Source: Gaiellales bacterium
GTDB lineage: Bacteria > Actinomycetota > Thermoleophilia > Gaiellales > JAICJC01
Direction: 5' to 3'
DNA length: 64,000 bases
NCBI GenBank assembly: GCA_038230835.1
Contig: JBBRMM010000008.1
Span: 4,721-68,720 of the forward strand
Below the pieces are notes generated by a model that was not told the origin of the DNA, searched no databases, and worked only from the letters and a program-made list of their open reading frames with translations. The translations under genes were made by a program, and so were the position numbers. How positions within the stretch are numbered: the stretch's first letter is position 1; each line of letters opens with the position of its first letter. Below are positions 2,643 to 31,202 of this stretch, one piece after another.

Positions 2643-2663
2643 CGCTCGCCTCTCCTCAGTTCA

Positions 2664-7800: not shown

Positions 7801-7830
7801 CGAGACGCGCTCGCGTCGGCTCGGGCACGG

Positions 7831-8406: not shown

Positions 8407-8419
8407 CACATGGGCTGGG

Positions 8420-8889: not shown

Positions 8890-8988
8890 TTTGCGGTCCT
8901 TTCAAGGGCACGTCCTCAGAGGGATCTACGACTCAACTGTAGCAGCGATCAGACCAGAGGCAATCCCCCGCCCCGCCAGGTCGGGCGC

Positions 8989-10931: not shown

Positions 10932-11530
10932 CCGCCTGCCTTGCGGATCCCGTCGGCGAGACTGGTGTCGCTTACCGTGCCTGGGTCGTGCGCCACGATC
11001 CGACCTTGGCGGTCGATGTAGTACGTCTCGGGAACGCCGGTCAGCCCGTAGTTCTCATAGGTCGAGTTGGACTTATCCCACACCGCGGTGTAGGTGACGC
11101 CGTAGCGGCGCAGAAAGCCGATCGCGTCGCCGCGTAGATCCTGCACGTCGACGCCGATGAACACGACGCGCGGGTTGCTCGCCGCGGCGTCGACCAGCAG
11201 CCTGGCCTCGGCGCGACACGCGACACACCAACTGGCCCAGAAGTTCAGCACCACCGGATGCCCACGCAGCCCGCCGAGATCGAGCCCACCGTTGCCGATC
11301 GCCTGTGCGACAGCCGGAGAGGGTGAGCCGCTGGGTGGCCAGAACAATTCAAGCTTGAACAGGGGCGCGGCCGGCTTATTCCCCGCCGCGATCTCCGAGA
11401 CCAGCGTGCCTCCCTGCGAGGACTTGACCAGACCGTAGGCAAACAGCGCCATCACCCCAACGACAGCGACCACGCCGCCAAGCGGGACGAACCACCTCAG
11501 ACCGCGCCAAACTCTCGTCATGGCGCCCAC
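10928..11530 (-). CDS. TlpA/ResA/CcmG-like membrane-anchored thioredoxin
   Basis: 200-aa ORF with an N-terminal TM and VVLNFWASWCVACRAE. Confidence 0.85.
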   Translation of the reverse strand: MGAMTRVWRGLRWFVPLGGVVAVVGVMALFAYGLVKSSQGGTLVSEIAAGNKPAAPLFKLELFWPPSGSPSPAVAQAIGNGGLDLGGLRGHPVVLNFWASWCVACRAEARLLVDAAASNPRVVFIGVDVQDLRGDAIGFLRRYGVTYTAVWDKSNSTYENYGLTGVPETYYIDRQGRIVAHDPGTVSDTSLADGIRKAGG

Positions 11531-11609
11531 CCGGTCGGGTGGTCGGCGATCTGATCGCTCGCTTGGACCGAGGGCAGCGCCGACCTTGGCGATTGGGGTC
11601 TGCTCGGGC

Positions 11610-12344
11610 TCAAAGGTTCGACCACCAGTCGAGATGCAGGCGCTCCAGCAGGTGCTGGGCGTAGATGTTCACGATGTAGAGCTGATTGGTCGCAAGCAGG
11701 TAGCCCATGACGATCAGAACCAGGCCCGCGAACCCCTGGAATCCACGGTAGAAGCGGCGCAAGAAGCGGAAGCTGCGCATCGCCTTGGTGAAGCCCAGCG
11801 AGACGAGCAGAAACGGGGCGGCCAAACCGAGGCCGTACACCAGCAGCAGCAGCACGCCTTGGGCCAGCGTCAGCTTCGCGCCCGCCAGCACGAGGATGCT
11901 TCCCAACACCGGTCCAATGCATGGCGTCCAGCAGAACGCGAACGCAACGCCAAGCGCGACCGGCCCGCCACGCGACACCGCGAGCCGCTGCACCGCCACG
12001 CCAGCCGAGCCGATACCAAGCCCCGACAGGGCGATGTCACCGACCATCAACACACCCATCGCCGCCACGAACCCACCAGCGACGACGTTGAACTGGTCGC
12101 GGTGCACGGCAAGCGTCGAGCCAAGCGCGCTTGCGCTCGCCCCCAGGGCCATGAATACCGCGAGGAATCCGACCAAGAAGAACAGACTCGGCACCAGTGC
12201 CCGGCGACCGCTCTGCTGCGCCGCTAGGTTGCCGCCGACGACCGCCGACACATAGCCCGGCACAAGCGGCAGCACGCACGGGCTCAGGAACGACACGAAC
12301 CCGGCCGCGAACGCCAAAGGAAGAAACACCCCACCGACCCGCAT
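11610..12344 (-). CDS. ccdA: CcdA cytochrome-c-biogenesis-type membrane thiol reductase
   Basis: ORF 11610..12410, trimmed to MRVGGVF, which overlaps the upstream stop. Motifs FLSPCVLPLVPGY and FCWTPCIGPVLG. Confidence 0.85.
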   Translation of the reverse strand: MRVGGVFLPLAFAAGFVSFLSPCVLPLVPGYVSAVVGGNLAAQQSGRRALVPSLFFLVGFLAVFMALGASASALGSTLAVHRDQFNVVAGGFVAAMGVLMVGDIALSGLGIGSAGVAVQRLAVSRGGPVALGVAFAFCWTPCIGPVLGSILVLAGAKLTLAQGVLLLLVYGLGLAAPFLLVSLGFTKAMRSFRFLRRFYRGFQGFAGLVLIVMGYLLATNQLYIVNIYAQHLLERLHLDWWSNL

Positions 12345-12922
12345 CACCCCTCCACCTCCACCAACGCGCGATCGAGCGACGCGACAGTCCGCGGCCCAAG
12401 CAGCCGCCACGCGATCCGCCCCTCACGGTCGATCACGAACGTCGTCGGAAGGCCGATGATCCGGTAGCGATCGGCGATCGTCCGGCTCGGATCAGCCACG
12501 ACCGAGTACCGCACGCCGAACACGTGCATAAACCGAAGCGCGGCCCTGCGCGGATCGTTGACATCGATGCCGATCAACACCGCACTGCGCGGATCCAGCG
12601 TCCTCGCGAAGCGCACCAGTTGGGGCGCCTCCTGTCTGCACGGATGACACCAACTCGCCCAGAAGTTGAGAAACACGACCCGTCCCCGATAGGCGCTTAA
12701 CGCCCCTGGACGGCCCTGCAGCGGGTGGCCGCCACGAAGCGACGGCGCCACATGCCGAGCAGCCGCCGGGACGACTGCGTTCGCACGCGCCGGAGCGGAC
12801 GGGGAGCTCCGCAGCAGCCCGCCGGTCATCACGACAGCTGCAGCCAGAAATGCGAGACCCCAGGCGACGCGTCGTATGACGACGAGCCGACCCGCGGCCG
12901 AAGCGATCCTCCCAGTGGACAC
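12344..12922 (-). CDS. TlpA/ResA-like membrane-anchored thioredoxin
   Basis: 192-aa ORF with a TM helix and VVFLNFWASWCHPCRQE. Confidence 0.85.
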   Translation of the reverse strand: MSTGRIASAAGRLVVIRRVAWGLAFLAAAVVMTGGLLRSSPSAPARANAVVPAAARHVAPSLRGGHPLQGRPGALSAYRGRVVFLNFWASWCHPCRQEAPQLVRFARTLDPRSAVLIGIDVNDPRRAALRFMHVFGVRYSVVADPSRTIADRYRIIGLPTTFVIDREGRIAWRLLGPRTVASLDRALVEVEG

Positions 12923-18050: not shown

Positions 18051-19259
18051 TTAGGCGAGAATAAGACCGGCAATGCCGGCGGCAACAACGACGTACGGCT
18101 CCTTGACGTTAAAGCGCCACAGCACAGCAAGCGCGATGCCGTACACGAGAATGGTTTTCCAGTCGACGATCGCGCCGCGAGCAAGCACGTAGCTGGCGCC
18201 TGCGATGGCGCCGACAGCGGCGGCCGTCGCGCCCTTGACGAAGCCCTGCACGCGGCGATTCTTCTGGTGTCGAACAAACCAACGGCCGGGAATCACGACG
18301 AAGAAGAACACCGGCAGAAAGATCGCGACCGTGGCGATCACGGCGCCGCTCATCTCGCCGGCGAGGTAGCCGACGAAGGTCGACATGATCACCACGGGGC
18401 CGGGGGAAATCAGTCCCATCGCGACGGCGTCGAGGAACTGGCGCTCGGTCACCCAGTGATACGAGTCGACCACGCCGTGGTGCATGAACGGGATGATCGC
18501 CAGCCCCGAGCCAAAGGTGAACGCGCCCGCTTCGACGAAGAACGCCGCCAAACCGACCGAGCCAGTCAGTGCAAGACCACCGGTCAGCCCGCCCGCCAGT
18601 ACAGGGAGCGGCACGACCGATACGGCACCTCGGCGCAGCCAGTCCGGGATGCCGCCCCCGTAGACGATCGTACCGAAGAGTCCGGCGACGATGAACAGCG
18701 GCGCGATCTCGGCACCTGCGATGGCGGTGATCAGGCCCAGGATCAGTGCGATCGTCCACAGGATGGGGTCGCGCTTGTTGGTGGTTCGGGCGAGCTTGAT
18801 CGCCGCCAAGGTGATGATCGCGATCGCCGCCGGGCCAATGCCGTAGAACAGCTTGTGCACCACTGATAATCCCTGGTAGTGCGCGTAGACGACGGCGACG
18901 GCCAGCACGAACAGGAACGCCGGTCCGATGAACACCAGCGACACCAAAAGCGCGCCCACCCAGCCGCGGCGGATGTAGCCCAGCCACATCGCAAGTTGGG
19001 CTGCCAGCGGGCCGGGCATCGTCTGAGCCAGCGCGAGGCCGTTGAGATACTCGCTCTCGGTGTACCAGCCGCGCCGCTCGACGAGGTCGCGCTGCATGTA
19101 GCCCGCCAAGGCGATCGGCCCACCGAATCCGAGCGCCCCGAGTCGAAGGAAATATCGAACGATCGCCGCGAAGTCCGGCGCCGCATGCTCGGCCGGTTCG
19201 GTCGTTTCGGGGATCCCATTGAGCTGCGGGTTACTCGTCGACATAGACGGCCGCTCCAC
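18051..19259 (-). CDS. chrA: Chromate ion transporter
   Basis: 402-aa ORF with LGALGFGGPIALAGYMQRDLVERRGW... and a duplicated CHR domain architecture. Confidence 0.9.
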   Translation of the reverse strand: MERPSMSTSNPQLNGIPETTEPAEHAAPDFAAIVRYFLRLGALGFGGPIALAGYMQRDLVERRGWYTESEYLNGLALAQTMPGPLAAQLAMWLGYIRRGWVGALLVSLVFIGPAFLFVLAVAVVYAHYQGLSVVHKLFYGIGPAAIAIITLAAIKLARTTNKRDPILWTIALILGLITAIAGAEIAPLFIVAGLFGTIVYGGGIPDWLRRGAVSVVPLPVLAGGLTGGLALTGSVGLAAFFVEAGAFTFGSGLAIIPFMHHGVVDSYHWVTERQFLDAVAMGLISPGPVVIMSTFVGYLAGEMSGAVIATVAIFLPVFFFVVIPGRWFVRHQKNRRVQGFVKGATAAAVGAIAGASYVLARGAIVDWKTILVYGIALAVLWRFNVKEPYVVVAAGIAGLILA

Positions 19260-20136
19260 TGCTGGATGGTTGAAACACGTACAGCGCGCGTTCGGATTGA
19301 TTCCACGCCGTCGTGTGCGCGCCCGATTCGGTCATCACGGTTTCGAGGTGGGCGAGCTCTGCGGTGTCGAACACGCTGACGCACCCTGGATCGCCAACCG
19401 CGACGTACAGCCGCGCCCGTTCGGGGTCGTGCCAGACGACGTCGGGCACCCCCGGCAGTGGCAGGGTCGCCTCGACGAGGCCGGAGTCCGCGTCGAGCAC
19501 GACCACCGCTCCACCGTCCGCCGCGCAGTACAGCCGCTGTCCGTCGAAGGCCAGGCCGTGCGGCCCATCCACCGGCACGTCCAACGCTCGGTCGACCTGC
19601 AGCGTCGCGGCGTTCAACGCGAGGATCTGCGCTGGGCTGCTGATATTCGCAAAGACGACATCGCGCGTCGCGTCGTACGTCGCCCATCGCGGTCGCCCCG
19701 GAAGCGGGGCGGTATCGACAACCCTCGCCGAGTCGACATCAACGATCGACAGCGTCGGATCGTGTCCGGGCGGGTGACCCAGATTGAGCACGAACAAGTG
19801 GCGTCGCGCCTTGTCGAATGCGAGCCCATTTGGATGCGCGCCAACGCCGACGCGCGCGACGAGTTCCTCATCGTCACACCGCCACATCGAAACGCGCGCG
19901 CAGCCGCGATCCGAGGAGAACAGCAGGTCATGCTCGTGGTCGATGAGCACGCCCGCCACGCCGGGCAGCTGCTCGAGTGATCGCAGATAGCTCCGCGATG
20001 CGCAGTCGAGCACGTCGATGCGATCCGCCCCGGTGTGTGCGACGTAGATGCGCTCACCGCGATAGCAGTCCGCATGATCGAACCCCGGCTCGCGCCCCGG
20101 AGGCACCGCGATGAATCCCCTCCGAGTCAGCGCCAT
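19231..20136 (-). CDS. YVTN/YncE-like beta-propeller protein
   Basis: ORF 19231..20223, trimmed to MALTRRGF. Repetitive blades are visible (..RIYVAH..DRIDVLD.., ..HLFVLNLG.., ..RLYCAADGGAVVVLD.., ..RLYVAVGDPGCVSVFD..). Confidence 0.7.
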   Translation of the reverse strand: MALTRRGFIAVPPGREPGFDHADCYRGERIYVAHTGADRIDVLDCASRSYLRSLEQLPGVAGVLIDHEHDLLFSSDRGCARVSMWRCDDEELVARVGVGAHPNGLAFDKARRHLFVLNLGHPPGHDPTLSIVDVDSARVVDTAPLPGRPRWATYDATRDVVFANISSPAQILALNAATLQVDRALDVPVDGPHGLAFDGQRLYCAADGGAVVVLDADSGLVEATLPLPGVPDVVWHDPERARLYVAVGDPGCVSVFDTAELAHLETVMTESGAHTTAWNQSERALYVFQPSSSGAAVYVDE

Positions 20137-20164
20137 GAGCACACCCCTGCGATACCTGGTCGTT

Positions 20165-20599
20165 TCACGCGGGCTCCCGCCCGAGCAACAGCGCGCGCCT
20201 GCGATATTCGTACAGTCCGTCAAACAGCGGGGCCGACCATGCCAGCATCTGCTCGTCGTCCCCAGAGATCATCGAGAGGCCGCGGAGCAGGATGTCAAGG
20301 CCCGGCCCCTCAGGCGCGTCGTAGCGCTCGTCAGCCAGATCGGCCTCATGAATCGCACGGCCGATCTCCACGAGCGCCGGATCGTCGAGCTCGTACCGAC
20401 GCAGAAACGCCTCGAAGCTACATTCGCCGCTGTGGTGGCCGAGCTCGACGCCGCGCATGTCAAAGGGTATGGCATAGGTGGGGACGTCGTCTGGATCGTC
20501 CACGAACACGAACTCCGCGTCCTGATCAACGAAGCGGCGGATCAGCCACGCGCAGGCCGCACGATCCACGTGGCAGTTCTTGCGCGTCGCCCATTTCAT
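20165..20599 (-). CDS. ChrB C-terminal-domain protein
   Basis: 144-aa ORF: MKWATRKNCHVDRAACAWLIRRFVDQDAEFVFV.... ATGA overlap with the ChrB-N gene upstream. Confidence 0.75.
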   Translation of the reverse strand: MKWATRKNCHVDRAACAWLIRRFVDQDAEFVFVDDPDDVPTYAIPFDMRGVELGHHSGECSFEAFLRRYELDDPALVEIGRAIHEADLADERYDAPEGPGLDILLRGLSMISGDDEQMLAWSAPLFDGLYEYRRRALLLGREPA

Positions 20600-21069
20600 G
20601 CCGCCGCCTCCACCGCGTTCGCGAGCCTCTCCACCGCGTCACTCGCAAGCTCGCGCTCCACCGGCGGGAAGTAGTCGCGCGAACCGATCCGTCGAAGCTC
20701 GCGACGCAGGCGCGCCAGCGTCCGACGCTGCTCAGACGGTGACCTGCCGACACCCCCCGCCGCCGCATCGATCACCGAGCGGTACTCCTCCGCGATCGCG
20801 GCCGCCATCTGCCCGGCCAACGCGCGCTCCTGAGCCGCCGACGCTGCCTCAGCCAGCCACAGCGTCGCCACGCCCCCGGCATCGGCCACCTCGTCAGCCA
20901 ACCACTCCATCTGCTCGCGCGTGCGGGCGTCGAGCGGCAGCGCCACCAACCCGTCCGTCAGCTGCACCACGCCCAATCGTCGCAGCTGCCGCCACACCGC
21001 GATCCGCGGCGTCGACGGCTCACGCGGCAGCCGGTACGCCAAGAACACCCATCGGATCCGCCCACTCAC
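20596..21069 (-). CDS. ChrB N-terminal-domain protein (split chrB)
   Basis: 157-aa ORF with a GTG start: ...WVFLAYRLPREPSTPRIAVWRQLRRLGVVQLTDGLVALP.... Confidence 0.7.
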   Translation of the reverse strand: MSGRIRWVFLAYRLPREPSTPRIAVWRQLRRLGVVQLTDGLVALPLDARTREQMEWLADEVADAGGVATLWLAEAASAAQERALAGQMAAAIAEEYRSVIDAAAGGVGRSPSEQRRTLARLRRELRRIGSRDYFPPVERELASDAVERLANAVEAAA

Positions 21070-21338: not shown

Positions 21339-22220
21339 ATGGACGCCATGCCACCGCTACGACACACCCATTCCTCAACTGACCCGAGCGGGGATTCGCA
21401 TACGCACGAGCATAGCCACGGAACGCTCGTCCACAGCCACGCCCACGTCCACGTGATCGACCTCGATCACAACGACCTACGGGCACACGACCACGAGCAC
21501 CCCCACCAGCATGACGACACCCACGAACACGACCACGACGATCCGCACGACCATGAGCACCCCCACCACCACGAAGGCGCGCACGGCCACTCACATGGCC
21601 TGGTCGACCGGTCGATCCTGCGATCCCGCGACGGCGTTCGCACAGTCGCGATCAGCCTCGGCGTGCTCGGCCTCACCGCCGCCATCCAGGCGCTCGTGTT
21701 CGTCCTCTCCGGATCCGTCGCACTGCTGGCGGACATGATCCACAACTTCGGCGACGCTCTAACCGCGGTACCGCTTGGGATCGCGTTCCTGCTCCGCTCA
21801 TACCGAGGCGAGAAGGTCGCCGGCCTGTTCGTCGTTCTGGCCATCTTCGTTTCCGCCTGCGTCGCGCTCTACGAGACCATCCAGCGGTTCATTCACCCAC
21901 AACACCTCTCCCATCTGGGCGTCTTGGCAGCCGCCGGCCTTGTCGGGTTCATCGGAAACGAGATCGCCGCCCGCGTCCGCCTCCGCGGCGGCCAACGCCT
22001 CCGAAGCCCAGCGCTCATCGCCGACGGAAACCACGCCCGCGTCGACGGCTACGTCTCCCTCACCGTCATCGCAAGCGCCTTCTTCGTCTGGATCGGCTGG
22101 AACATCGCCGACCCCCTCATCGGCATCGCCATCACCCTCGTCATCCTCAAGATCACCTGGGACAGCTGGCACGTCATCTCCCGCACCGAACCAGGCGAGG
22201 AACCCGCCCCCCACCAATAG
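21339..22220 (+). CDS. Cation diffusion facilitator with about 85-aa His/Asp-rich N-terminus and no obvious C-terminal cytoplasmic domain
   Basis: 293-aa ORF with HTHEHSHGTLVHSHAHVHVIDLDHNDLRAHDHEHPHQHDDTHEHDHDDPHDHEHPHHHEGAHGHSHG followed by SVALLADMIHNFGDAL TM helices. Confidence 0.85.
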   Translation: MDAMPPLRHTHSSTDPSGDSHTHEHSHGTLVHSHAHVHVIDLDHNDLRAHDHEHPHQHDDTHEHDHDDPHDHEHPHHHEGAHGHSHGLVDRSILRSRDGVRTVAISLGVLGLTAAIQALVFVLSGSVALLADMIHNFGDALTAVPLGIAFLLRSYRGEKVAGLFVVLAIFVSACVALYETIQRFIHPQHLSHLGVLAAAGLVGFIGNEIAARVRLRGGQRLRSPALIADGNHARVDGYVSLTVIASAFFVWIGWNIADPLIGIAITLVILKITWDSWHVISRTEPGEEPAPHQ

Positions 22221-22284
22221 CGCCGAACTTCTCGCTCGTCCGTCGGGGGCGCAACGGGGCGCGCCGGGAGCCCCTGAGGCGCCT

Positions 22285-22339
22285 GGGTAAGCCAAACCCG
22301 TCCCGTCTTCATGTAGCCCGTGCGTTGGTAGGTTCGACC
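22285..22339. repeat. Structured intergenic repeat, copy B (shorter, degenerate)
   Basis: GGGTAAGCCAAACCCGTCCCGTCTTCATGTAGCCCGTGCGTTGGTAGGTTCGACC. Shares GCCAAAC and CGTCTTCA with copy C, and ATGTA.CC..TGCGTTGGTAGGTTCG with copy A. Confidence 0.45.
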
Positions 22340-22477
22340 AGCACGGACACTAACCGTGGGCGTCGGGACTGCGTACAAACCGGCGTTTATCCCTGGTGAC
22401 GCTGCTGGAGGATGAAGCTGTCCCAGAGCGGGCCACGATCGTGGCGGGTGGCATGGAAGCCGCGTGAGGTCGCGACC

Positions 22478-22930
22478 TCAAGTATCTGCGCGTGTGGGTG
22501 GACGTAGCCGCGGAAGGCGATTCGAGGTCAGCGCCTCGGCGTCGGGGTAGCAGCAGATGACGCGGTGCATGATCACGATGTCGGCGACCGGCACCTGATC
22601 TGGTTGCTGAGCGAAATCTGCGATGTGGCGCTCGACCCGGTCCTCCACGCGGTGCTCTGAGATGAGTGAGCGGGCGGTGTCTTCGTAGTTGTCGATGATC
22701 TCGACGTTCGTGGCGTGGCTCGCCCCGGCTTCGAGCAGTTCGATCTGCAGGCTGCCGATGCCACCGCCGACCTCGAGCACGGAGTGTTTGTTCACTCCCT
22801 CGTCGGTGAGCGCGTTGAGGAGCCATCCGGCGGAGCCGGTGAGGCCTTTGCGGCGGTAGCGGCGCGCGTCTCGTTCGACGGTCTTTGTGCCGAAGATGGT
22901 TCGGTAGCCGGTTGGTGTGCAGCAGTTCAT
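22478..22930 (-). CDS. Class I SAM-dependent methyltransferase, 3' end apparently deleted or frameshifted
   Basis: 150-aa ORF: MNCCTPTGYRTIFGTKTVERDARRYRRKGL...VLEVGGGIGSLQ...HRVICCYPDAEAL. The family-like C-terminus (AFRGYVHPHAQILEVATSRGFHATRHDRGPLWDSFILQQRHQG, stop 22387-22389) is in another frame. Confidence 0.6.
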   Translation of the reverse strand: MNCCTPTGYRTIFGTKTVERDARRYRRKGLTGSAGWLLNALTDEGVNKHSVLEVGGGIGSLQIELLEAGASHATNVEIIDNYEDTARSLISEHRVEDRVERHIADFAQQPDQVPVADIVIMHRVICCYPDAEALTSNRLPRLRPPTRADT

Positions 22931-23060
22931 GTAGCAAATGGCTTGGTCGTTTCGATGGTGGCTCCTTGGGCGCCGACCTTCTCGGCCTTCTGCGGGTGTC
23001 CGCGAACGCGGAGCGGGCGTGGTTGATCAGGTCACTGGTCGGAGTTCGCACTAAGATCGG
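22927..23060 (-). pseudogene. Decayed duplicate of the 3' end of the ArsM-like methyltransferase gene
   Basis: ..TSDLINHARSAFADTR, a 1-nt deletion, then QKAEKVGAQGATIETTKPFAT-stop. This parallels TGDLIDTYAHSAFHDTRQKAEKYGARGATIKATKPSAT-stop at 23486..23600. The similarity is also visible at nucleotide level. Confidence 0.6.
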
Positions 23061-23076
23061 CGCCGCGGTTCGTCTG

Positions 23077-23451
23077 CTAGTAGCTGAAGACGGTCGCGCC
23101 GTCGCCGATCCATTCCCAGAGTGGTGTTGCGCCGCCGATCTGAGCGTGCTTGAGGAGGGCGTCCTCGGAGAGTTTGCGGGCGCTGAAGCAGATCGGGCAG
23201 ACGAGCAGTCGCCCACCGGCCTCTGCGTATTGCGCAGCGAGCGTCTGAAGCGGTGGGCAGCCGTCGCAGGCAACGCCCTGGGCCATGCCTGGGAGCGCGA
23301 GGCGCACGGCCTCCTTGGTCAGGAACATTGTCACCTGTTTGCCGGCGGTGGCGGCCGCCCCGGCGATCAGGAACGCCACCGTTACCCGCTCGGGATCTTC
23401 GAGTCCGGTCGCGAGGTTGACGACCACCTTGCTGCTTTGGTTCGCGCTCAT
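23077..23451 (-). CDS. DsrE/DsrF-like sulfur-relay family protein
   Basis: 124-aa ORF with a GAGGAGG RBS. Sequence VVVNLATGLEDPERVTVAFLIAGAAA...VACDGCPP...LLVCPICFSARKL. Confidence 0.8.
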   Translation of the reverse strand: MSANQSSKVVVNLATGLEDPERVTVAFLIAGAAATAGKQVTMFLTKEAVRLALPGMAQGVACDGCPPLQTLAAQYAEAGGRLLVCPICFSARKLSEDALLKHAQIGGATPLWEWIGDGATVFSY

Positions 23452-23485
23452 TGCAATCCTCCTCGTGTTGGATGGGTCGTGTAGT

Positions 23486-24280
23486 TCACGTAGCCGATGG
23501 CTTGGTGGCTTTGATGGTCGCGCCGCGGGCGCCGTACTTCTCTGCCTTCTGGCGGGTGTCGTGGAATGCCGAGTGGGCGTAGGTGTCGATCAGGTCGCCG
23601 GTCTCGATGTCTGTGAATCCGTGGCGCAGTAGGCGGCTCTCGTACTCTGCTTCCAGCAGAGCTCCTGCGATTCAACCGGCCCACAGGTCGATGTCTCGCC
23701 TTCCCTCGTCAGAGACCGGGTGGTGGATGGTGACGTCGGCCAGTTGGATGCGGCCGCCGGGTCGCAGCACGCGGACGATCTCGGAAAAGACGGCGTCCTT
23801 GTCGGGGATCAGGTCGATGACGCCGTTTGAGATCACGACATCGAAGCTTGCGTCGGCGAACGGCAGCTGCTCGGCGCTGCCCTGGACGATCGTGACGGTG
23901 TCGAGTCCTATCTCGGCGGCTGACCGGCGTGCTTTGGCGGTCATCTCGGGGGTCATGTCGATGCCGGTCACCGAGCCGGTTGGGCCGACCATCTGCGCTG
24001 CGATGAGTGTGTCCAGGCCGGCGCCGCAGCCGACGTCCAGTACATCCTCACCGGCGCCTAGCGATCCGAGCACGAAGGGGTTTGCGACTCCGGCGAACGA
24101 CTCGCGGGACGTCTCAGGGATGCGCGCCAGCAGATCGGCGGGGTAGTCGAGATCCTGCGCCCAGGCGCGGCCGGTGGGGAACATGAAGTCGCGGTCCGGC
24201 TCGCGCGACACCGCCGCGTAGGTGCGCTGGATCTCCGAGCGCAAAAGCTCGACATCCAGCCCCTCCACCTCTACCGCCAT
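23486..24280 (-). CDS. ArsM/UbiE-like SAM methyltransferase read through an in-frame TGA (23672-23674): candidate selenoprotein (264 codons, putative Sec at 203)
   Basis: Track ORF 23672..24280 has VLDVGCGAGLD and VISNGVIDL and ends ...DIDLWAG-TGA. The same frame continues for 61 stop-free codons, IAGALLEAEYESRLLRHGFTDIE...ATIKATKPSAT, matching the ArsM GC(I/V)AGAL... C-terminal domain. The extension has no start codon of its own. Confidence 0.6.
23645..23661 (-). promoter_or_regulatory. SECIS-like hairpin downstream of the in-frame TGA
   Basis: On the coding strand, CTCTGCT-GGA-AGCAGAG forms a perfect 7-bp stem starting 11 nt after the TGA, with G residues in the apical loop. Confidence 0.4.
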
Positions 24281-24352
24281 GACGACCTCCGATCCACAAA
24301 ACCACGGGATGCGAGCAGGGCGTGGTTCATGAGCACGATCCTCCTTGGGTTG

Positions 24353-25612
24353 TCAGGCACCGGATGGAGCCCCGAGCGCGGGGACGAGGGGGCGCTGTTG
24401 CCAGTGGGTAAGTGCAACGGTGAGGCCGCTGGCGGCGGTGAGCGCGGCGACGATGGTGATGGCAGCCTGGGGGCTGGCGAGGTCGGCGCCGATGCCGGCG
24501 ATGAGCGCGCCAAGCACGAAGCCGAAGTCGCGCCAGAAGCGGTAGACGCCGACCACGCGGGCGCGGTCGCGCGGCTGGCTGGCGTCCGAGACGGCGGCGA
24601 TCAGCGTCGGATAGACCATGGCGGTGCCGGCGCCGAGCAGAACCGCGGCCACCAGGGATGGCAGGAACGCTCCCCCGCCGGCGACGAGGAGCCCGAGCGC
24701 CGCGGCCTGAATGAGCATGCCGATCGTAATCAGCGGTTTCCGTCCGGTGTGGTCGCTAAGCCAACCCGTGAAGAGCTGCCCGGCGCCCCACACCACCGGG
24801 TAGGCAGCGGCAACGACCGCGATCTGGCGCACGCTGGCGCCGTTTGCTGCCAGGAACAGCGGCGCCAGGCCCCAAGCGAGCGCGTCGTTGAGGTTGTTCA
24901 CGAGACCAGCCTGGCTGCACGCCCGCAGCACCGGGTCATGCCAGGTCGCTTGCACAAACGCGCTTCGTAGTGTGTGCGCTGGCGCCGTTGAGTCGTGGTC
25001 GCGCTGCTCGAGCGCGACGTGGGCATGGGTATCGCGCACCCAGACCTGCGAGACAAGCAATCCGGTTGCGGCGATCAGGGCGGCGCCTACCCATACGACT
25101 GTACGCGGCGCGTAAGTGGCGGCAAGCGCGCCGGTAGTGAATGCTGTAGCGGCGACGCCCAGATAGCCGGCGGCCTCGTTCAGGCCAAGCGCCAACCCAC
25201 GCCGGGCGGGGCCGGCCAGGTCGATCTTCATCACCACTGTCATCGACCAGGCCAAGCCCTGATTGACGCCCAGCAGCAGGTTCGCGGCGACGATGAAGCC
25301 CCAGCTCGGTGCGAAGCCAATCAGGAGCGGTATCGGCAGGGCGACCAGCCAGCCGATCACCAGCAGCCGCTTCCGACCGACGCGTTCGGCCAGGCCGCCG
25401 GCGGCCAGGTTGGTGATCGCCTTGGCGGCACCGAACGCAAGAACGAACGTGAGAATCGCGGTCGTGGAGTGCAGCCCGAAGTCGTGCTGGCCGACCAGTG
25501 GTAGGACGCTTCGCTCCAGGCCGACCATCCCCCCTACCAGCGCGTTGAGCGCCACCAACAGCGTGAACTGGGCAGCGTTCTCGCGCAGGCCGAGCCGAAC
25601 GGGTACGGTCAT
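24353..25612 (-). CDS. MFS transporter
   Basis: 419-aa ORF with 12 TM helices and GGLAERVGRKRLL. ATGA overlap with the upstream PDO gene. Confidence 0.85.
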   Translation of the reverse strand: MTVPVRLGLRENAAQFTLLVALNALVGGMVGLERSVLPLVGQHDFGLHSTTAILTFVLAFGAAKAITNLAAGGLAERVGRKRLLVIGWLVALPIPLLIGFAPSWGFIVAANLLLGVNQGLAWSMTVVMKIDLAGPARRGLALGLNEAAGYLGVAATAFTTGALAATYAPRTVVWVGAALIAATGLLVSQVWVRDTHAHVALEQRDHDSTAPAHTLRSAFVQATWHDPVLRACSQAGLVNNLNDALAWGLAPLFLAANGASVRQIAVVAAAYPVVWGAGQLFTGWLSDHTGRKPLITIGMLIQAAALGLLVAGGGAFLPSLVAAVLLGAGTAMVYPTLIAAVSDASQPRDRARVVGVYRFWRDFGFVLGALIAGIGADLASPQAAITIVAALTAASGLTVALTHWQQRPLVPALGAPSGA

Positions 25613-26364
25613 GCCGGCGTGCTGGTCGCGCCTCGGCGATTGGCAGCAACGATCCGCGCCTGCTCGGGCGGCGCCGGCGGCGTGTCCTTGACCAGTGCCT
25701 CGGCAAACGCGTCGGCATCCGTGAAGGAGAGCATCTCGTTGTGCGCGCGCTCAAAGCCGATCGAGGAGACGGGGTTGCCGGACAGTCCCCGGCCGCACGC
25801 CGACCCGGCGTAGTGGCTCGGGAACACGACGACGTAGTCGGGCAGCTCGAGCAAACGCCGTAGCGACGCATGCAGCTCCCGCGACTGACCGAGCGCATCG
25901 CCGGCCACATGCAGATCTGGACGGCCGACATCGCCGATCAGCAGCGAGTCGCCCGTGAACACCAGCCACGGCTCCTCCGTCCCCCGCCGCAGATCCGACA
26001 CCGCATAAGCATGGTGTGTAGGCGCGTGGCCGGGCGTTGCGATCGCCGTCACCCGCGTGTTGCCCAGCTCAACCACGGCGCCATCTTCTAGCGGCGTGTG
26101 CTCGAACTCGACGCCCGCACCGACCGGGAGGTACGCCGTCGCGCCGGTGCGCTCCACCAGCTCGGGCAGCCCCGAAACGTGGTCTGCCTGGACGTGGGTC
26201 TCGAACACAGCCACGATCGGCTGACCCACAGCCTCGGCCGAAGCGACGTAGCGATCGACCAGATCGGCATGCGGGTCGACCACCGCCAACGTGCCGTGCG
26301 TCGTGCACCCAAACAGGTAGCTCGCACACGACGTGGCGTCGTTCAGGAAGGGCCGCAGCAACAT
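25609..26364 (-). CDS. MBL-fold persulfide-dioxygenase-like hydrolase (ETHE1/Blh type)
   Basis: 251-aa ORF with SYLFGC...AVVDP, ETHVQADHVSG (HxHxDH) and TPGHAPTHHAY. Confidence 0.8.
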   Translation of the reverse strand: MLLRPFLNDATSCASYLFGCTTHGTLAVVDPHADLVDRYVASAEAVGQPIVAVFETHVQADHVSGLPELVERTGATAYLPVGAGVEFEHTPLEDGAVVELGNTRVTAIATPGHAPTHHAYAVSDLRRGTEEPWLVFTGDSLLIGDVGRPDLHVAGDALGQSRELHASLRRLLELPDYVVVFPSHYAGSACGRGLSGNPVSSIGFERAHNEMLSFTDADAFAEALVKDTPPAPPEQARIVAANRRGATSTPA

Positions 26365-27029
26365 CAGGCAGCCCCTTCAACCGGAAGTCCTGCACGCCGC
26401 CACTCCGGGAAACCAACATCCAACCGCCGCGCGCGAACACCACGCGCCCGCAGCAGCCGCACCGCGTCATCCGCATACACGCAGTAAGGCCCGCGGCAGT
26501 ACGCGATCACCTCACCCCGCCGCGTTAGCTTCGGCAGCCCTGATTGGAGCGTCCCGATGGGCGCTGAGATCGCGCCGGCGATGTGGCCAGCGTCGTACTC
26601 CGCCTCCGGCCGCACGTCAAGCACCACCACCTGGCCGCGAGCCACCCGCTCGGCAAGCTCCGCGGCCGACACCTGCTCGATTCCGTCTCGATCGCCCAGG
26701 TACTCACCTGCAAGCACCGCGACCTCCGCCACATGATGAGCCGCCACATCCCGCACCGCCGCCCACAGATCCGCCACCCGATCGCTCGCCAAGCGATACA
26801 CCACCCGAGCACCGTCGCGACGCGACCGAACCAGACCCGACCGGGCCAAGAGCCGCAGGTGGTGCGACGTGTTGGCGAGACTCTGGCCGACCTCACCCGC
26901 CACCTCATCCACCGACCGCTCACCCTGGGCCAACACATCCACGATCTCCGCCCGCCGCCCACTGCCCAACGCCTGCGCCACCGACGCAAACGCGTCAAAC
27001 AGGGCATCCTTGGCCACACGGTCACTCAT
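26364..27029 (-). CDS. ArsR-family regulator fused to a rhodanese domain (BigR-like context)
   Basis: 221-aa ORF with wHTH ...SVDEVAGEVGQSLANTSHHLRLLARSGLVRSRRDGARVVYRL, then rhodanese VVLDVRPEAEYDAGHIAGA...IAYCRGPYC. Confidence 0.85.
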   Translation of the reverse strand: MSDRVAKDALFDAFASVAQALGSGRRAEIVDVLAQGERSVDEVAGEVGQSLANTSHHLRLLARSGLVRSRRDGARVVYRLASDRVADLWAAVRDVAAHHVAEVAVLAGEYLGDRDGIEQVSAAELAERVARGQVVVLDVRPEAEYDAGHIAGAISAPIGTLQSGLPKLTRRGEVIAYCRGPYCVYADDAVRLLRARGVRARRLDVGFPEWRRAGLPVEGAA

Positions 27030-27139
27030 ATAATCAAACTATCACTTGAACCCAAGATCGTCAAACCGGCGGCCGGGTGAGAGCCGTCACCCCTGCGGGG
27101 AGGGCGCCGCCGGGGGCGCAGACTGACTGCTGTCCCCGC

Positions 27140-27206
27140 GGTTGAGCCAAACTCGCCCGGTCTTGAAAACCGGCACAAAGCGGCCGATCTGAAGGCCGGT
27201 TTGGAC
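27140..27206. repeat. Structured intergenic repeat, copy C
   Basis: GGTTGAGCCAAACTCGCCCGGTCTTGAAAACCGGCACAAAGCGGCCGATCTGAAGGCCGGTTTGGAC. Closing stem CCAAAC/GTTTGG, with hairpins CCGGT-CTTGAAA-ACCGG and CGGCC-GATCTGAA-GGCCG. Confidence 0.5.
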
Positions 27207-27301
27207 GGAAAATCTGAGCTGGTGCCCCCATAGTGCCCCCACGGGAATCACTGACGCTTCAGCTACACCAGGTTTCCCGCTTAACCAACCCGCAAACAGC
27301 A

Positions 27302-27347
27302 AGCCCTCTAACGGACTCGAACCGTTGACCCCTTCCTTACCATGGAA
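27302..27347 (-). other. tRNA 3'-half-like fragment (anticodon arm, T arm and 3' acceptor strand; no matching 5' half)
   Basis: Reverse strand reads TTCC-ATGGTAA-GGAA G GGGTC AACGG-TTCGAGT-CCGTT AGAGGGC T. The T arm is canonical, but no upstream GCCCTCT is present to close an acceptor stem. Confidence 0.3.
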
Positions 27348-27648
27348 TCGATCGCTTACGCTCGACAGGCCCGCACTACTTCGATGTTAGCAAGCAACTA
27401 TCAGCCACATCGACGGTTTCCTCCTGAAGGGCGACTTCCTTGACGGGATTATGCGATCGTTACGGTGGCGGCTGGGGAGTAGCCTGTTTGGCCGCCCGCG
27501 GTGCGGCGGTAGCGCGCGCGAAACTGCCATGTGCCTTTGGCGAGCGTCGTTGAGGTTGACGTGGTGGTCTGGTCGACTCGGATTCCACCATCGCGGGCGT
27601 AAGATCCTCTTGTCGCAATTCGCAGGGTACCGGCCGAAGGAGCGTCAC

Positions 27649-30108
27649 GTGATCCTCCAGCAGTACTACCTTGGCTGCCTCGCGCACGCCTCCTATCTGA
27701 TCGCCGACCTGCAGAGCGGCGTGGCTGCGGTCGTCGATCCTCAGCGCGACGTCGACCAGTACCTGACCGACGCTCGCCGGGCGGGCGTTCGCATCGAGCA
27801 CGTCTTCCTGACGCATTTCCACGCCGACTTCCTGGCCGGCCATCTCGAGCTGCGCGACCGCGCGGGAGCGAAGATCTATCTGGGCCGAAGCGCCCAGGCC
27901 GAATACGAGTTCACGCCGGTGGGAGATGGCGATGTTGTCGAGTTGGGCTCGCAGGTGCGACTCCAGGTGCTGGAAACGCCCGGCCACTCGCCCGAATCGA
28001 TCTCGATCCTGGTATTCGATCTGACTGAGGACGCTAAGGCCCCGGCGGCGGTGCTGACCGGCGACACGCTCTTTATCGGCGATGTCGGCCGACCTGACTT
28101 GCGCGCCTCGCTGGGCTGGAGCGCGCAAGAGCTCGGCAGCATGCTTTTTGACTCGCTGCGCGACAAGCTGCTGCCGCTGCCCGACGCGACCCTTGTCTAC
28201 CCTGCGCACGGGGCGGGTTCGCTGTGTGGCAAGCACCTCAGCAGCGACACCGTCTCGACGATCGGCGAGCAGCGCTTGCACAACTACGCCCTGCAACCCA
28301 CCAGCCGCGACGAGTTCATCCGCATCGTCACTGCTGATCAGCCGGAGACGCCGAGTTACTTCTCGTACGACGCGGTCCTGAACGCCCAGGAGCACCCGAC
28401 GCTTGAGAAGGCGCTCGAGCGCGGGCTGCGTCCGCTCACGCTGGAGCAGACGCTCGAGGCAAAGTCGGCCGGCGCCCAGATCCTCGACACCCGCGATCCG
28501 GCCGACTTCGCGGGCGCGCACCTGGCCGGTAGCATCAATATTGGGCTGGGCGGAAGCTACGCGACGTGGTGCGGCACGCTGCTCGATCGAGAGCGGCCGG
28601 TGGTGGTCGTGACCGACCTTGGCCGCGAACTGGAGTCGGCTATGCGGCTGGGCAGGATCGGGTTCGACATCGTGGCCGGCTACCTCGGCCGCGGGTTGCT
28701 GGCGCTGGAGGGCCACCCCGACCTCGTCGCGAGCGCCGAGCGGGTCACCGCGAGCGCGCTTGAGGAGCAGCTCCTCTCGCCGGCCCCGCCAGTGTTGCTC
28801 GACGTCCGGTCGCAGCTCGAGTGGGACGAGAAGCACGTCGACGGGAGCATCAACGTTCCGCTGGCGCACCTGGCGGACCGGATCGACGAGCTGCCACACG
28901 ACCGCCTCATGGTCACACAGTGCTCAAGCGGCTACCGCTCCTCGATCGCCGCCAGCATCCTGCTCGCGCAGGGATTAACGCAGGTCGAGGACATGGTCGG
29001 CGGCCTCGACGCCTGGGTGTCGTCGGGGCTCGAGACGGTGCAGCCAGTCGGCGTCCGGCACCTGATCCTGCACCGCGAGGATCCGCACAACGCGGAGGCG
29101 CCGGTCGCGCTCCTGTGCGGATCCACCGTCACCGCATCCGAGACGTTCTTCGTCCGCAACCACGGGCCTGTGCCGGTGGTCGACGCCGGCGCTTACCGGC
29201 TGACGTTGGCCGGCGCCGTATCGCGGCCGCTAGCGCTTTCGATCGGCGAGCTGCGGGAGCAATTTGCGCACACCACGGTGACCGCCACGATCGCATGCGC
29301 CGGCAACCGCCGCGGCGAGTTGAACAGCTTCGCGCACGTACCCGACGCGATCCCGTGGGGCGCCGGCGCGATTGGCACCGCGACCTGGACCGGGATCCGC
29401 CTCGGCGACCTGCTCGAAGCGGTCGGGCCGACGGACGACGCCCGCCACGTCGCATTCGTGGGGCTCGATCAGGTCGAGGCCGAGGGCGGGCTCGCCTCCT
29501 TTGCAGGCTCGATCCCGCTCAAGAAGGCGCTTTCGCCGGAGGTACTGCTCGCCTACGAAATGAACGGCGCGCCCCTACCGGCCGAGCACGGCTTCCCGCT
29601 GCGCGCCATCATCCCCGGCTATATCGGCGCTCGCAGCGTGAAATGGCTCTCGGCCATCTCGGTGCAACCCGCGCCCTCGGCCAGCTTCTTCCAGATCACC
29701 GACTATGCACTCGACGGCGAACCGCTGGGCGAACTGCCGCTCAACTCGGTGGTATGCCGGCCGGCGTCTGGCGATACCGTCTCCGGTCCCTCGATTGTGG
29801 CGGAGGGCTACGCGCTGGCCGGCGGGCCGCGCTCGGTGGAGCGGGTCGAGGCGTCGCTCGACGGCGGCGTGACCTGGATACCGGCGTCGCTGGCGGCCAG
29901 TCGCGAGCCGTGGGCATGGCGTTTGTGGAGGGTGGAGCTGGAAATCCCGGAGGGTTCCTGCGAGCTGATCGTGCGGGCCTTTGACTCGGCGTCCGGCGGA
30001 CAGCCCGAGGCGCTTGCCAGCGTCTGGAACCCCCGCGGCTACATGAACAACGCCTGGCACCGGGTGTCGTTCGACGTCGCCCCAGTCGGCCGCATCACGG
30101 CCGCCTGA
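27649..30108 (+). CDS. Fusion protein: persulfide dioxygenase (MBL fold), rhodanese (inactive), rhodanese (CSSGYRS), and sulfite-oxidase-type molybdopterin domain
   Basis: ORF 27451..30108, trimmed to GTG 27649 (GAAGGAG RBS 7 nt upstream). Motifs: LTHFHADFLAGH, TPGHSPES, MVTQCSSGYRSS, FFVRNHGPVPV, IACAGNRRGE, LLAYEMNGAPLPAEHGFPLRAIIPGYIGARSVKWL. Confidence 0.85.
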   Translation: MILQQYYLGCLAHASYLIADLQSGVAAVVDPQRDVDQYLTDARRAGVRIEHVFLTHFHADFLAGHLELRDRAGAKIYLGRSAQAEYEFTPVGDGDVVELGSQVRLQVLETPGHSPESISILVFDLTEDAKAPAAVLTGDTLFIGDVGRPDLRASLGWSAQELGSMLFDSLRDKLLPLPDATLVYPAHGAGSLCGKHLSSDTVSTIGEQRLHNYALQPTSRDEFIRIVTADQPETPSYFSYDAVLNAQEHPTLEKALERGLRPLTLEQTLEAKSAGAQILDTRDPADFAGAHLAGSINIGLGGSYATWCGTLLDRERPVVVVTDLGRELESAMRLGRIGFDIVAGYLGRGLLALEGHPDLVASAERVTASALEEQLLSPAPPVLLDVRSQLEWDEKHVDGSINVPLAHLADRIDELPHDRLMVTQCSSGYRSSIAASILLAQGLTQVEDMVGGLDAWVSSGLETVQPVGVRHLILHREDPHNAEAPVALLCGSTVTASETFFVRNHGPVPVVDAGAYRLTLAGAVSRPLALSIGELREQFAHTTVTATIACAGNRRGELNSFAHVPDAIPWGAGAIGTATWTGIRLGDLLEAVGPTDDARHVAFVGLDQVEAEGGLASFAGSIPLKKALSPEVLLAYEMNGAPLPAEHGFPLRAIIPGYIGARSVKWLSAISVQPAPSASFFQITDYALDGEPLGELPLNSVVCRPASGDTVSGPSIVAEGYALAGGPRSVERVEASLDGGVTWIPASLAASREPWAWRLWRVELEIPEGSCELIVRAFDSASGGQPEALASVWNPRGYMNNAWHRVSFDVAPVGRITAA

Positions 30109-30306
30109 ATCAACGGCGCCTTCCCCAATGACCTGACCGGCATCGATCGGTCGTGAGACTCAGAGGACACGGCGACGCGGGCTTTCCTAGCCTCGATTCT
30201 GCGTGGGGGCGTGGTTTGGCGTCCGGTCGGGTACGAAAATGGCCTCCTGAGCAGGCAAGACGGGCTGTATGGGCAGTCGCGATGCCTGCAGCAGGAGGTC
30301 ACCCGG

Positions 30307-31032
30307 ATGGTGAAGCATACGAAGCGGCGTCGGACGTTGCGGTTGGTGGCTGATGATGATCGGTTGGTGTCGCATGCTGGCCTGGTGGTGGTGGATGAGG
30401 TGGCTCAGCGGCTGGGCTTGGAGCGGGAGTTGACCGAGGCGGTGGGATTGGCGTATCGGTCGCAGCCGCCGGGGCGGACGCTGGTGCGTTTGGCGCAGAT
30501 GCTGATCGCTGGTGGTGATTGCGTGATGCATCTGCGTGGGTTGCGTGACCAGCCGGCCTTGTTTGCAGACCCCACCGCGCATGACTCGACCGCGTGGCGA
30601 CTCTTGGCTGAGCGGCTGGTGGGCGCGCCGTTGGCAGGCCTTGGGGCTGCGCGGGCGGCGGCGCGTGAGCGGGCCTGGCAGGCGGGTCTGCGACCGGTGA
30701 CGGTCCCGATCGACGTCGACGCGCACTTGGTGACCAGCCACACAGACGAGAAGGAGGCAGCGTTTGCGACCTATAAGCAGGGGTTCGGGTGTCACCCGTT
30801 GGTCGCTTACCTGGCCGAGACGAGTGAGGCGCTGGCCGGGGTTCTGCGGCCTGGCTGCGCGTCGGCGCTGGACGCCGAGGATCAGTTGGAGGTGGTCGAC
30901 CTGGCGCTCGAGCAGTTGCCCGCAAGCGTCTCACCCCAAGACGTCTTGGTGCGCGCCGATACCGCGGGCTACGCGAAAGGCGTGGTCGGCGGATTGTGCC
31001 GGCGCGCACAACCGCAGGTCTGGGGCACATGA
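30307..31032 (+). mobile_element. IS1380-family transposase, N-terminal fragment (truncated)
   Basis: MVKHTKRRRTLRLVADDDRLVSHAGL...PIDVDAHLVTSHTDEKEAAFATYKQGFGCHPLVAYL...LRPGCASALDAEDQLEVVDLALEQLP...VLVRADTAGY. About 240 aa are present of an expected roughly 450. The fragment ends about 90 nt from tRNA-Leu. Confidence 0.7.
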
Positions 31033-31118: not shown

Positions 31119-31202
31119 TGCGGATGAGAGGACTTGAACCTCCACGACCTTACGGCCACACGGACCTGAACCGTGCGCGTCTACCAATTCCGCCACATCC
31201 GC
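31119..31202 (-). tRNA. tRNA-Leu (anticodon CAG), type II with long variable arm; CCA not encoded
   Basis: Reverse strand: GCGGATG TG GCGGAATTGGTAGACGC G CACGG-TTCAGGT-CCGTG TGGCCGTAAGGTCGT GGAGG-TTCAAGT-CCTCT CATCCGC A. Confidence 0.9.

Follow-up and report, generated by a model that had tools for sequence, protein, structure and literature searches.

Introduction

Among described systems, the closest to the locus reported here are the sulfide and persulfide detoxification operons, represented by the cst operon of S. aureus (CstR, CstA, CstB, sulfide:quinone reductase (SQR) and TauE) and the yrk cluster of Bacillus, together with the ArsR/SmtB-type repressors BigR (Xylella, Agrobacterium) and SqrR (Rhodobacter). 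The latter two are winged-helix proteins encoded in an autoregulated position beside a persulfide dioxygenase (PDO) gene, with a palindromic operator at their own promoter, and they sense through a pair of cysteines in the DNA-binding domain, Cys42/Cys108 in BigR and Cys41/Cys107 in SqrR. Here we analyse a 64,000-nucleotide (64-kb) stretch of DNA from a Gaiellales bacterium (assembly GCA_038230835.1, contig JBBRMM010000008.1, positions 4,721 to 68,720), which we call the window. It contains five minus-strand genes for an ArsR-rhodanese regulator, a PDO, a major facilitator superfamily (MFS) transporter, an S-adenosylmethionine (SAM) methyltransferase with an in-frame UGA that may encode selenocysteine (Sec), and a DsrE-family sulfur carrier. 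It is, in our estimation, rather probable that the interval 23077-27050 is one operon and the actinobacterial counterpart of the cst, BigR and SqrR operons.

The window regulator shares with BigR and SqrR the winged helix, the position beside a PDO gene and the palindromic operator, while its cysteines lie in the loop of the fused rhodanese domain and not in the DNA-binding domain. With cst and yrk the locus shares the detoxification logic, and with cst also a CstB-type PDO, a DsrE/TusD-type carrier, a rhodanese and an exporter; SQR, a member of cst, is linked in some relatives of the window. The differences concern the regulator (CsoR-like CstR in cst versus an ArsR-rhodanese fusion), the exporter (TauE versus MFS), the PDO, which unlike CstB has no fused rhodanese, and the ArsM-like methyltransferase with Sec or Cys, which is found in the window operon and not in cst operons. 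An earlier reading of this DNA, made by a model from gene content (the original prediction), had called the coupling of DsrE and methyltransferases non-standard for such operons; this is right for the methyltransferase, whereas carriers of the DsrE/TusD type are usual in cst-like operons (CstA).

The nearest known arrangement to the window regulator is the split pair YgaV-YgaP of E. coli, in which the same two modules, ArsR-type and rhodanese, are found in separate proteins, YgaP being membrane-anchored and not fused to the regulator. A fusion arranged as in the window is presumably present in Rv0324/Mb0332 of the Mycobacterium tuberculosis complex, for which, to our knowledge, neither a ligand nor an operator nor a PDO-MFS-methyltransferase regulon is on record. 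In the literature that we searched we found no description of an ArsR-rhodanese regulator, a PDO-methyltransferase operon or a PDO-sulfite-oxidase fusion.

Results

Gene order and its conservation

The original prediction had placed in 22387-30108 an ArsR-rhodanese regulator, two PDO-type enzymes, an MFS exporter, a DsrE-like carrier, two methyltransferases and a sulfite oxidase domain, and had proposed that they form one reactive-sulfur module. All these genes are indeed encoded there, as judged by open reading frame (ORF) listing and by profile scans with Pfam and NCBIfam; structure matches given below are to the PDB. The DNA here is of the high-GC actinobacterial kind. Overlaps of 1 and 4 nt join the first three minus-strand genes, and gaps of 73 and 36 nt separate the later ones; from this spacing the five genes running from 27029 to 23077 look like one transcription unit. 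A promoter scan of 22200-27700 returned zero matches, and a terminator scan one sub-chance match on the wrong strand.

We followed the gene neighbourhood in relatives from two anchors. A scan through GTDB, in which each species was represented by a single genome, yielded 60 loci that encode a full-length homolog of the regulator, mostly from Thermoleophilia/Gaiellales, Acidimicrobiia and Mycobacteriales, in which homologs of the other window proteins were counted by tblastn at distances of up to 5 kb from the regulator. A PDO is found within this distance in 47/60 loci, an MFS transporter in 46, an ArsM-like methyltransferase in 31 and DsrE in 20, so that the synteny groups the regulator, PDO, MFS, Sec-methyltransferase and DsrE beyond chance. 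The same is not true for the sulfite-oxidase domain, which occurs in none of the 60 loci, or for the Cys-rich second methyltransferase, which occurs in two. The co-occurrence expected by the original prediction is therefore seen for one methyltransferase and the four other genes and fails for the remaining two, and the conserved module that it perceived does exist, with five genes and not nine.

The second anchor was the methyltransferase in metagenome contigs. A PDO-MFS pair lies directly upstream of it in 14 of the 19 loci that had enough upstream sequence, and DsrE adjoins it in 13/33 loci. In the nearest relatives, four soil contigs whose regulator is 91% identical to that of the window (L098-L101; L-numbers are labels for the related loci and contigs compared here), the order ArsR-rhodanese, PDO, MFS, upstream open reading frame (uORF) and 202-aa methyltransferase is the same, and so are the junction overlaps, with different flanking genes. 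In some methyltransferase-anchored loci a divergent LysR-type regulator replaces the ArsR-rhodanese, from which it follows that PDO, MFS and methyltransferase, with or without DsrE, are the conserved core and that the regulator is exchangeable. The closest methyltransferases (89-91% identity) also sit in triplets with a type-III-like SQR and DsrE. Further afield, on plasmid pRHL3 of Rhodococcus jostii RHA1, genes for an MFS transporter and a PDO-rhodanese are divergent from an ArsR-rhodanese gene, all three annotated in generic terms only.

The layout of two of these arrangements may be recorded in passing. In a sub-group of metagenome loci the LysR-type gene (L112:4531-5529, minus strand) precedes the order PDO-MFS-DsrE-Sec-methyltransferase. 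The triplets of L089-L094 (for example L090:8488-11204) consist of an SQR-like flavoprotein of 448 aa, a Sec-methyltransferase and DsrE. The best NCBIfam match of the flavoprotein is 'type III sulfide quinone reductase, selenoprotein subtype', at 239 bits, below the cut-off of the model.

Operator and regulator

Alignment of the 110 nt upstream of the regulator across related loci brought out a palindrome, which in the window directly precedes the regulator ATG and overlaps the likely -10 region and the start of the regulator gene. If a site may differ from TTCAAG-N6-CTTGAA at no more than two positions, 48/59 loci have it in the 200 nt that precede the regulator, and 17 of these have two copies, against a background of 8 sites in 832 kb (0.002 per 200 nt). 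The ArsR-type dyad that the original prediction proposed to look for in 27030..27140 is thus found, and it is the sole match in the window. The same search of the 64 kb found no site upstream of the plus-strand fusion gene described below, and the operator is also absent upstream of Sec-methyltransferase genes that lie outside the regulator cluster. A generic repeat finder applied to the intergenic region reported weak GC palindromes only and missed the operator.

The regulator scores 72 bits with the NCBIfam model HTH_metalloreg (cut-off 55). Its best PDB match is 2KKO/3GW2 (E=3e-19), a winged-helix fragment of a mycobacterial 'possible ArsR-family' regulator that we take to be Mb0332/Rv0324; SqrR (6O8L, E=5e-6), BigR (3PQJ, E=1.6e-5), YgaV (3CUO) and YgaP (5HBL/2MOI) are also among the matches. 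Residues 1-177, the DNA-binding half, contain zero cysteines. The only two, C178 and C183, lie in the rhodanese loop CRGPYC (AYCRGPYCVYAD) and are invariant in 58/58 homologs. Membership in BigR is ruled out by the missing cysteine pair in the ArsR domain and by a score of 35.7 bits with the BigR equivalog model NF040642 (cut-off 155), and the label 'BigR-like' given by the original prediction does not hold for the way it senses. Since the ArsR half is free of cysteine and the only invariant cysteines are in the rhodanese loop, it is most likely the fused rhodanese domain that does the sensing, as far as this can be read from conserved residues.

Proteins of this kind are abundant: more than 8000 database entries match the regulator at E<=1e-20, the best 120 matches all combine HTH_5/HTH_20 with Rhodanese under generic names only, and a homolog is encoded on 188 plasmids of cultured bacteria.

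A candidate selenocysteine codon in the methyltransferase

Read through its in-frame TGA, the methyltransferase gene yields a 263-residue protein. In 119 of the best 120 homolog clusters (80-91% identity) the protein stops just before the UGA, at ...DLWAG or ...DLWTG. Both the TGA and the frame downstream of it (IAGALLEAEY...) are conserved at the DNA level: the codon is present in 78/80 metagenome relatives, down to 67% identity, and the relatives found at regulator loci also keep it, down to ~45% identity. In regulator-linked clusters this column holds TGA in ~60% and Cys in ~40% of cases (LWASCIGG, LWTGCIAG). The pN/pS ratio is 0.12-0.37 downstream of the UGA, similar to 0.16-0.21 upstream, and by this measure the frame beyond the UGA is under purifying selection. 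The comparison with the 66-72% cluster-type genes was discarded, because indels put the alignment rows out of register.

A hairpin resembling a selenocysteine insertion sequence (SECIS) lies a short distance past the UGA. In the alignment 99% of cells are paired. Among 72 unique sequences the GGA loop is invariant and pair 15-29 is U-A in 43 and G-C in 29, with no mixed case; this covariation ties a synonymous site to a Glu/Ala replacement and may stem from one or few evolutionary events. A more distant methyltransferase subfamily has another hairpin, with a CGUGC loop, at equal distance from the UGA. The motif UxxG is characteristic of a known ArsM-type selenoprotein family (PMC13188914), and U-I-A-G of the window fits it; as a class, selenoproteins of the Sec-ArsM type have thus been known before. 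With the retained TGA, the Cys homologs and the hairpin, the methyltransferase that the original prediction had called possibly Sec-dependent emerges as a strong selenoprotein candidate.

The uORF that overlaps the start of the methyltransferase may be a translational leader. Its peptide is conserved in L090, L093, L094 and L098, and L011 has a related uORF (MQNTLLVLRFL...).

Likeness of the methyltransferase to ArsM

The enzyme matches Methyltransf_31/25/11 of Pfam and, in the PDB, the ArsM structures 5EVJ (E=1e-29) and 4FR0 (E=1.3e-20), with which it aligns over residues 49-237. Like CmArsM (4FS8) and CrArsM (5EVJ) it has the class I SAM fold, and its Sec falls exactly on Cys224 of CmArsM. 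Unlike them it has Val at the position of Cys72, Gly at that of Cys174 and no N-terminal equivalent of Cys44, and in several orthologs Sec is the only chalcogen residue, no Cys being present besides it. As two arsenic-binding cysteines are missing, the protein is probably not an arsenite methyltransferase. The reading as a bona fide ArsM was rejected on account of these absent conserved cysteines together with the score of 205.2 bits for the ArsM subfamily model NF008823, whose cut-off is 263.

The genomic partners also set it apart from ArsM, being sulfide-oxidation genes and not ars genes. We infer from the constant partners SQR, PDO and DsrE that the substrate is a chalcogen compound, be it sulfide, persulfide, methanethiol or selenide. 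This context is best matched by the methylation of H2S and methanethiol (MeSH) carried out by MddA, MddH, MddM1 and MddM2. MddM1 and MddM2 are class I SAM methyltransferases for S-methylation of H2S/MeSH, a detoxification that H2S induces and that is widespread among Actinomycetota (PMC12904073). The likeness is one of function, suggested by context only, and the MddM precedent for S-methylation does not amount to demonstrated homology. Unlike the window enzyme, Mdd proteins (UbiG/UbiE-type or membrane proteins, ~205-210 aa) are not reported to have a catalytic Cys or Sec.

PDO and DsrE

The closest structures to the PDO are the CstB-like PDO-rhodanese 3TP9 (E=1e-48), the S. aureus-type 3R2U (E=8e-36) and human ETHE1 (4CHL, E=1.5e-10). 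Of the features of CstB-type (type III) PDOs, the alignment to 3TP9 and 3R2U shows the two His and one Asp of the mono-iron site (ETH.., TPGH, TGD) and the cysteine of AGSxCG (AGSACG) to be retained. Its 251 residues comprise the metallo-beta-lactamase (MBL) domain only, without the C-terminal rhodanese; the orthologous gene in clusters of Acidimicrobiia, Mycobacteriales and Rhodococcus encodes a PDO-rhodanese fusion. In DsrE the CPxC motif is invariant, and C85 and C88 are kept in 22-23/23 sequences.

Neighbouring genes and the resistance island

The plus-strand neighbour of the operon combines Lactamase_B, two Rhodanese, Oxidored_molyb (E=2e-56) and Mo-co_dimer (E=1e-24) domains. The Lactamase_B part is a CstB-like PDO. 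Its start at GTG 27649 is given by an identical 819-aa database protein and by protein length in more than 80 homolog clusters (820-870 aa), which share the four-domain architecture and come from soil Thermoleophilia (Gaiellales, Solirubrobacterales and Thermoleophilaceae). The Mo-ligand motif CAGNRR is present ('IACAGNRR'), there is no haem domain or signal peptide, and the score with the SorA equivalog model is 205 against a cut-off of 600. Judged by its domains, the protein could convert persulfide to sulfate in one polypeptide. The gene stands alone in L096. Its place in the module, assumed by the original prediction, is contradicted by its absence from the regulator loci, by the lack of an operator and by a tRNA relic that separates it from the operon; on our reading the fusion gene is independently acquired and merely adjoins the operon.

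The relic is the 3'-half of a tRNA gene. ARAGORN and Rfam call no tRNA at 27302-27345; at its gathering threshold Rfam reports two tRNAs only in the whole window, and by E-value nothing intergenic in 26900-27750. That the relic repeats the nearby tRNA-Leu was considered and rejected, since its origin is another tRNA and the window holds no further copy of it. In L011 a similar relic precedes the regulator by ~50 nt, and this speaks for an integration junction; the window relic is likely an att-type junction of an integrative element.

Downstream of dsrE lie two further remnants. The Cys-rich methyltransferase has, relative to two full-length homologs, an out-of-frame internal deletion of 107 nt and is frameshifted. 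When intact, members of this family have 223-235 aa, with cysteines conserved at four positions (MxCCTPTGY..., VICCYPD), and neither Pfam nor NCBIfam has a specific family for them. The gene is often found just downstream of a Sec-methyltransferase, sometimes with a cupin gene between (copies at L002:10792-11499, L008:11388-12059 and L097:13469-14140). Upstream of the pseudogene, ~105 nt remain of a Sec-methyltransferase copy, namely its last ~35 codons with deletions of 1 nt and 3 nt, and the stop of this relic overlaps the pseudogene ATG. The same arrangement is intact in L002-L004, so that relic and pseudogene appear as debris of a second methyltransferase pair recombined behind dsrE. A frameshifted pseudogene that is rarely linked to the regulator can hardly be the module member that the original prediction took it for.

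All these features belong to a mosaic island that ends at tRNA-Leu(CAG). The GC content is 0.65-0.69 to the left of this tRNA versus 0.70-0.74 to the right, where the housekeeping genes uvrC, whiA, gap, iPGM and argS are found. Besides the resistance genes listed in Table 1, the island holds cation diffusion facilitator (CDF) genes. That the operon is cargo of such an island explains its accidental neighbours. Two ORFs of the island, 19231-20223 (minus strand, 330 aa, between chrA and chrB) and 6850-7830 (minus strand, 326 aa), have coding-like GC at third codon positions and no Pfam match.

Table 1. Coordinates of the probable operon and of neighbouring features in the window
Feature	Position	Strand	Basis or remark
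Probable operon: operator, arsR-rhodanese, pdo, mfs, uORF, Sec-methyltransferase, dsrE	23077-27050	-	spacing and synteny
Operator dyad, minus strand TTCAAGTGATAGTTTGAT, consensus TTCAAG-N6-CTTGAA	27033-27050	.	comparative alignment
ArsR/SmtB winged-helix regulator with C-terminal rhodanese, 221 aa	26364-27029	-	Pfam HTH_5, HTH_20, Rhodanese
Stand-alone CstB-type PDO, MBL fold, 251 aa	25609-26364	-	PDB and Pfam; start overlaps regulator stop
MFS transporter, 419 aa	24353-25612	-	Pfam MFS_1 E=4e-43; 4-nt overlap with PDO gene
uORF, 19 codons (MNHALLASRGFVDRRSSWR*), own Shine-Dalgarno, overlaps methyltransferase start	24271-24330	-	peptide conservation
ArsM-like class I SAM methyltransferase, 263 codons, candidate Sec codon 203 in LWAG-U-IAG	23487-24280	-	read-through and homologs
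In-frame UGA, candidate selenocysteine codon	23672-23674	-	ORF translation
SECIS-like hairpin, 8 bp, GGA loop, starts 9 nt past UGA	23644-23662	-	alignment pairing and covariation
DsrE/TusD-family sulfur carrier, 124 aa	23077-23451	-	Pfam DsrE PF02635, 50.1 bits (cut-off 22.7)
Relic, 3' end of second Sec-methyltransferase copy, non-functional	22927-23033	-	~80% identical to 23487-23600
Pseudogene, Cys-rich methyltransferase (N-terminal CC, ICCYPD)	22387-22930	-	107-nt deletion near 22527/22528
tRNA 3'-half relic, 44 nt: variable arm, T-arm GGTTCGAGTCC, acceptor strand	27302-27345	-	between operon and fusion gene
PDO-rhodanese-rhodanese-sulfite-oxidase fusion, 819 aa	27649-30108	+	Pfam/NCBIfam; neighbour, not operon member
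Truncated DDE transposase, profile positions 3-236 of 435, island debris	30211-31032	+	Pfam DDE_Tnp_1_4
tRNA-Leu(CAG), right-hand island boundary	31119-31202	-	ARAGORN/Rfam
Mosaic metal-resistance island, lower GC	1-31202	.	contains all features above
P-type ATPase with HMA	217-2655		
CopC/CopD	3852-6041		
Redoxins and DsbD	6216-12422		
CopY/BlaI-like repressor	9998-10528		
ChrA and split ChrB genes	18051-21069		

Discussion

The five-gene unit is conserved across soil actinobacteria and probably serves to sense and remove toxic reactive sulfur. Its working could be as follows. The ArsR domain would bind TTCAAG-N6-CTTGAA, the conservation of which is observed directly, over its own promoter and thereby repress the operon. 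Sulfane sulfur or its selenium analogue would load the CRGPYC loop, and a Cys178-S(n)-Cys183 bridge or a persulfide would release the repressor. By homology, the CstB-type PDO would oxidise low-molecular-weight persulfide to sulfite, with DsrE ferrying sulfane sulfur between partners. In the methyltransferase the single Sec, at the ArsM Cys224 site and beside the SAM methyl group, may bind the chalcogen substrate and allow its methylation, so that methylation of sulfide, persulfide, methanethiol or selenide would provide a second, volatilising sink, and the MFS protein would export an end product. That oxidation and methylation act together in detoxification, as the original prediction supposed, is a reasonable suggestion from the gene content. 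A bolder formulation is that we deal with a widespread and hitherto undescribed operon, in which a one-component sensor of a new kind, an ArsR repressor, senses through the rhodanese CRGPYC loop and a single-Sec, ArsM-derived methyltransferase acts on sulfide, persulfide or methanethiol (or selenide) and not on arsenite; this we put forward tentatively, as a possibility that is more doubtful than the operon itself.

Several observations weigh against this picture. All the chemistry is assigned by homology or context. The methyltransferase is present in about half and DsrE in about a third of the regulator loci, so these two are accessory and not obligatory. The setting is a metal-resistance island, and a metalloid resistance set likewise combines ArsR, an ArsM-like enzyme and an MFS transporter. 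As to selenocysteine, selA, selB, selC and selD were not found in the 64-kb window and ARAGORN found no tRNA-Sec in the window or in the 60 related loci, a negative that is uninformative for genomes seen as 20-kb pieces; Sec decoding in the source genome is accordingly presumed. In the cultured strain Modestobacter sp. DSM 44400 the codon at the Sec site is TAG (L042 ~11284-11286) and the downstream frame is intact; a loss in the recent past, an error of sequencing or a genome without Sec decoding could account for this. One full-length homolog (P0047, 262 aa, JGI) has Arg at the Sec position and also lacks Cys59. In the window itself codon 59 (~24104-24106) is Arg, where 115/121 close homologs have Cys; regulator-linked orthologs have Val at this position.

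Of the other explanations, resistance to metalloids (As, Sb, Te, Se) deserves most attention, although we hold it to be unlikely. Here an ArsR-type protein would sense the metalloid, the ArsM-like enzyme would methylate it and an ArsK-like MFS protein would export it, with PDO, rhodanese and DsrE servicing thiols. The ArsR-family and ArsM-homologous genes are in its favour, the best family matches of the latter being ArsM-domain models (NF008823 at 205 bits; PDB ArsM at E=1e-29), as are the island, with its P-type ATPase, CopC/D, CDFs and ChrA/ChrB, and the JGI label 'arsenite methyltransferase' on homologs of the enzyme. Yet NF008823 stays under its cut-off, the Cys72 and Cys174 positions hold Val and Gly, several orthologs are free of Cys besides Sec, the window regulator lacks Cys in its ArsR domain, the place of As(III) sites, and the constant partners PDO, DsrE and SQR are sulfide-oxidation genes. 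In L097, moreover, whose regulator is 90% identical, a separate canonical ars set stands beside the cluster, so that the two systems coexist as distinct units. This set, a few kb from the cluster (L097:427-2843), comprises ArsR, a 274-aa methyltransferase, LMWPc (low-molecular-weight phosphatase-type ArsC) and an MIP channel. Less likely still is a module specific for selenium, in which rhodanese and DsrE would traffic selenide or perselenide and the methyltransferase would volatilise excess selenide as dimethyl selenide (DMSe). It would agree with a candidate selenoprotein in the operon, with rhodanese and DsrE-like proteins being recurrent selenoprotein families, and with the SQR beside close homologs, whose best match is the 'selenoprotein subtype' model. 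Orthologous clusters, however, have Cys in place of Sec and so manage the function without selenium, PDO and SQR act on sulfur, and selD, yedE and yedF were not found nearby.

The in-frame UGA has its own competing interpretation, that it is a plain stop, the 202-aa product being functional or the gene decaying, with residual conservation downstream. No Sec machinery is seen in the window, Modestobacter has the TAG variant and gene callers annotate 202-aa proteins, and still we consider this improbable: the TGA is kept in 78/80 metagenome relatives with purifying selection downstream, homologs have Cys at the site, a covarying hairpin follows the UGA, and an end at codon 202 would remove a region aligned with the ArsM core, including the Cys224 site. 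Equally at the low end, and marginally lower, we place the view that all of 22387-30108, with the second methyltransferase and the fusion gene, is one co-regulated composite module. Its genes are physically adjacent and thematically coherent, and the Cys-rich methyltransferase follows the Sec-methyltransferase in L002-L004 and L008 and lies beside the operon in L097. The synteny, however, already largely refutes it, with no sulfite-oxidase domain in any of the 60 regulator loci and the fusion gene alone in L096; in addition, the window has one operator only, on the regulator side, the tRNA relic lies between operon and fusion gene, and the second methyltransferase is frameshifted by its 107-nt deletion. 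With one dead gene and one unrelated neighbour included, the gene-content reading alone had overstated the module.

The five-gene operon is a conserved and tractable module for reactive-sulfur handling in abundant soil Actinomycetota, present also on pRHL3 of R. jostii RHA1. It comes with a precisely defined operator and with a candidate for a new way of sensing among ArsR-family repressors, one that may bear on Rv0324 of M. tuberculosis. A large group of metagenomic 'arsenite methyltransferases' would move to sulfur/selenium chemistry, and, if this is true, many such soil selenoproteins are mis-named. Should the methylation be real, the operon would be a selenium-dependent source of methanethiol, dimethyl sulfide or DMSe in the cycling of sulfur and selenium in soil, alongside the oxidation of persulfide.

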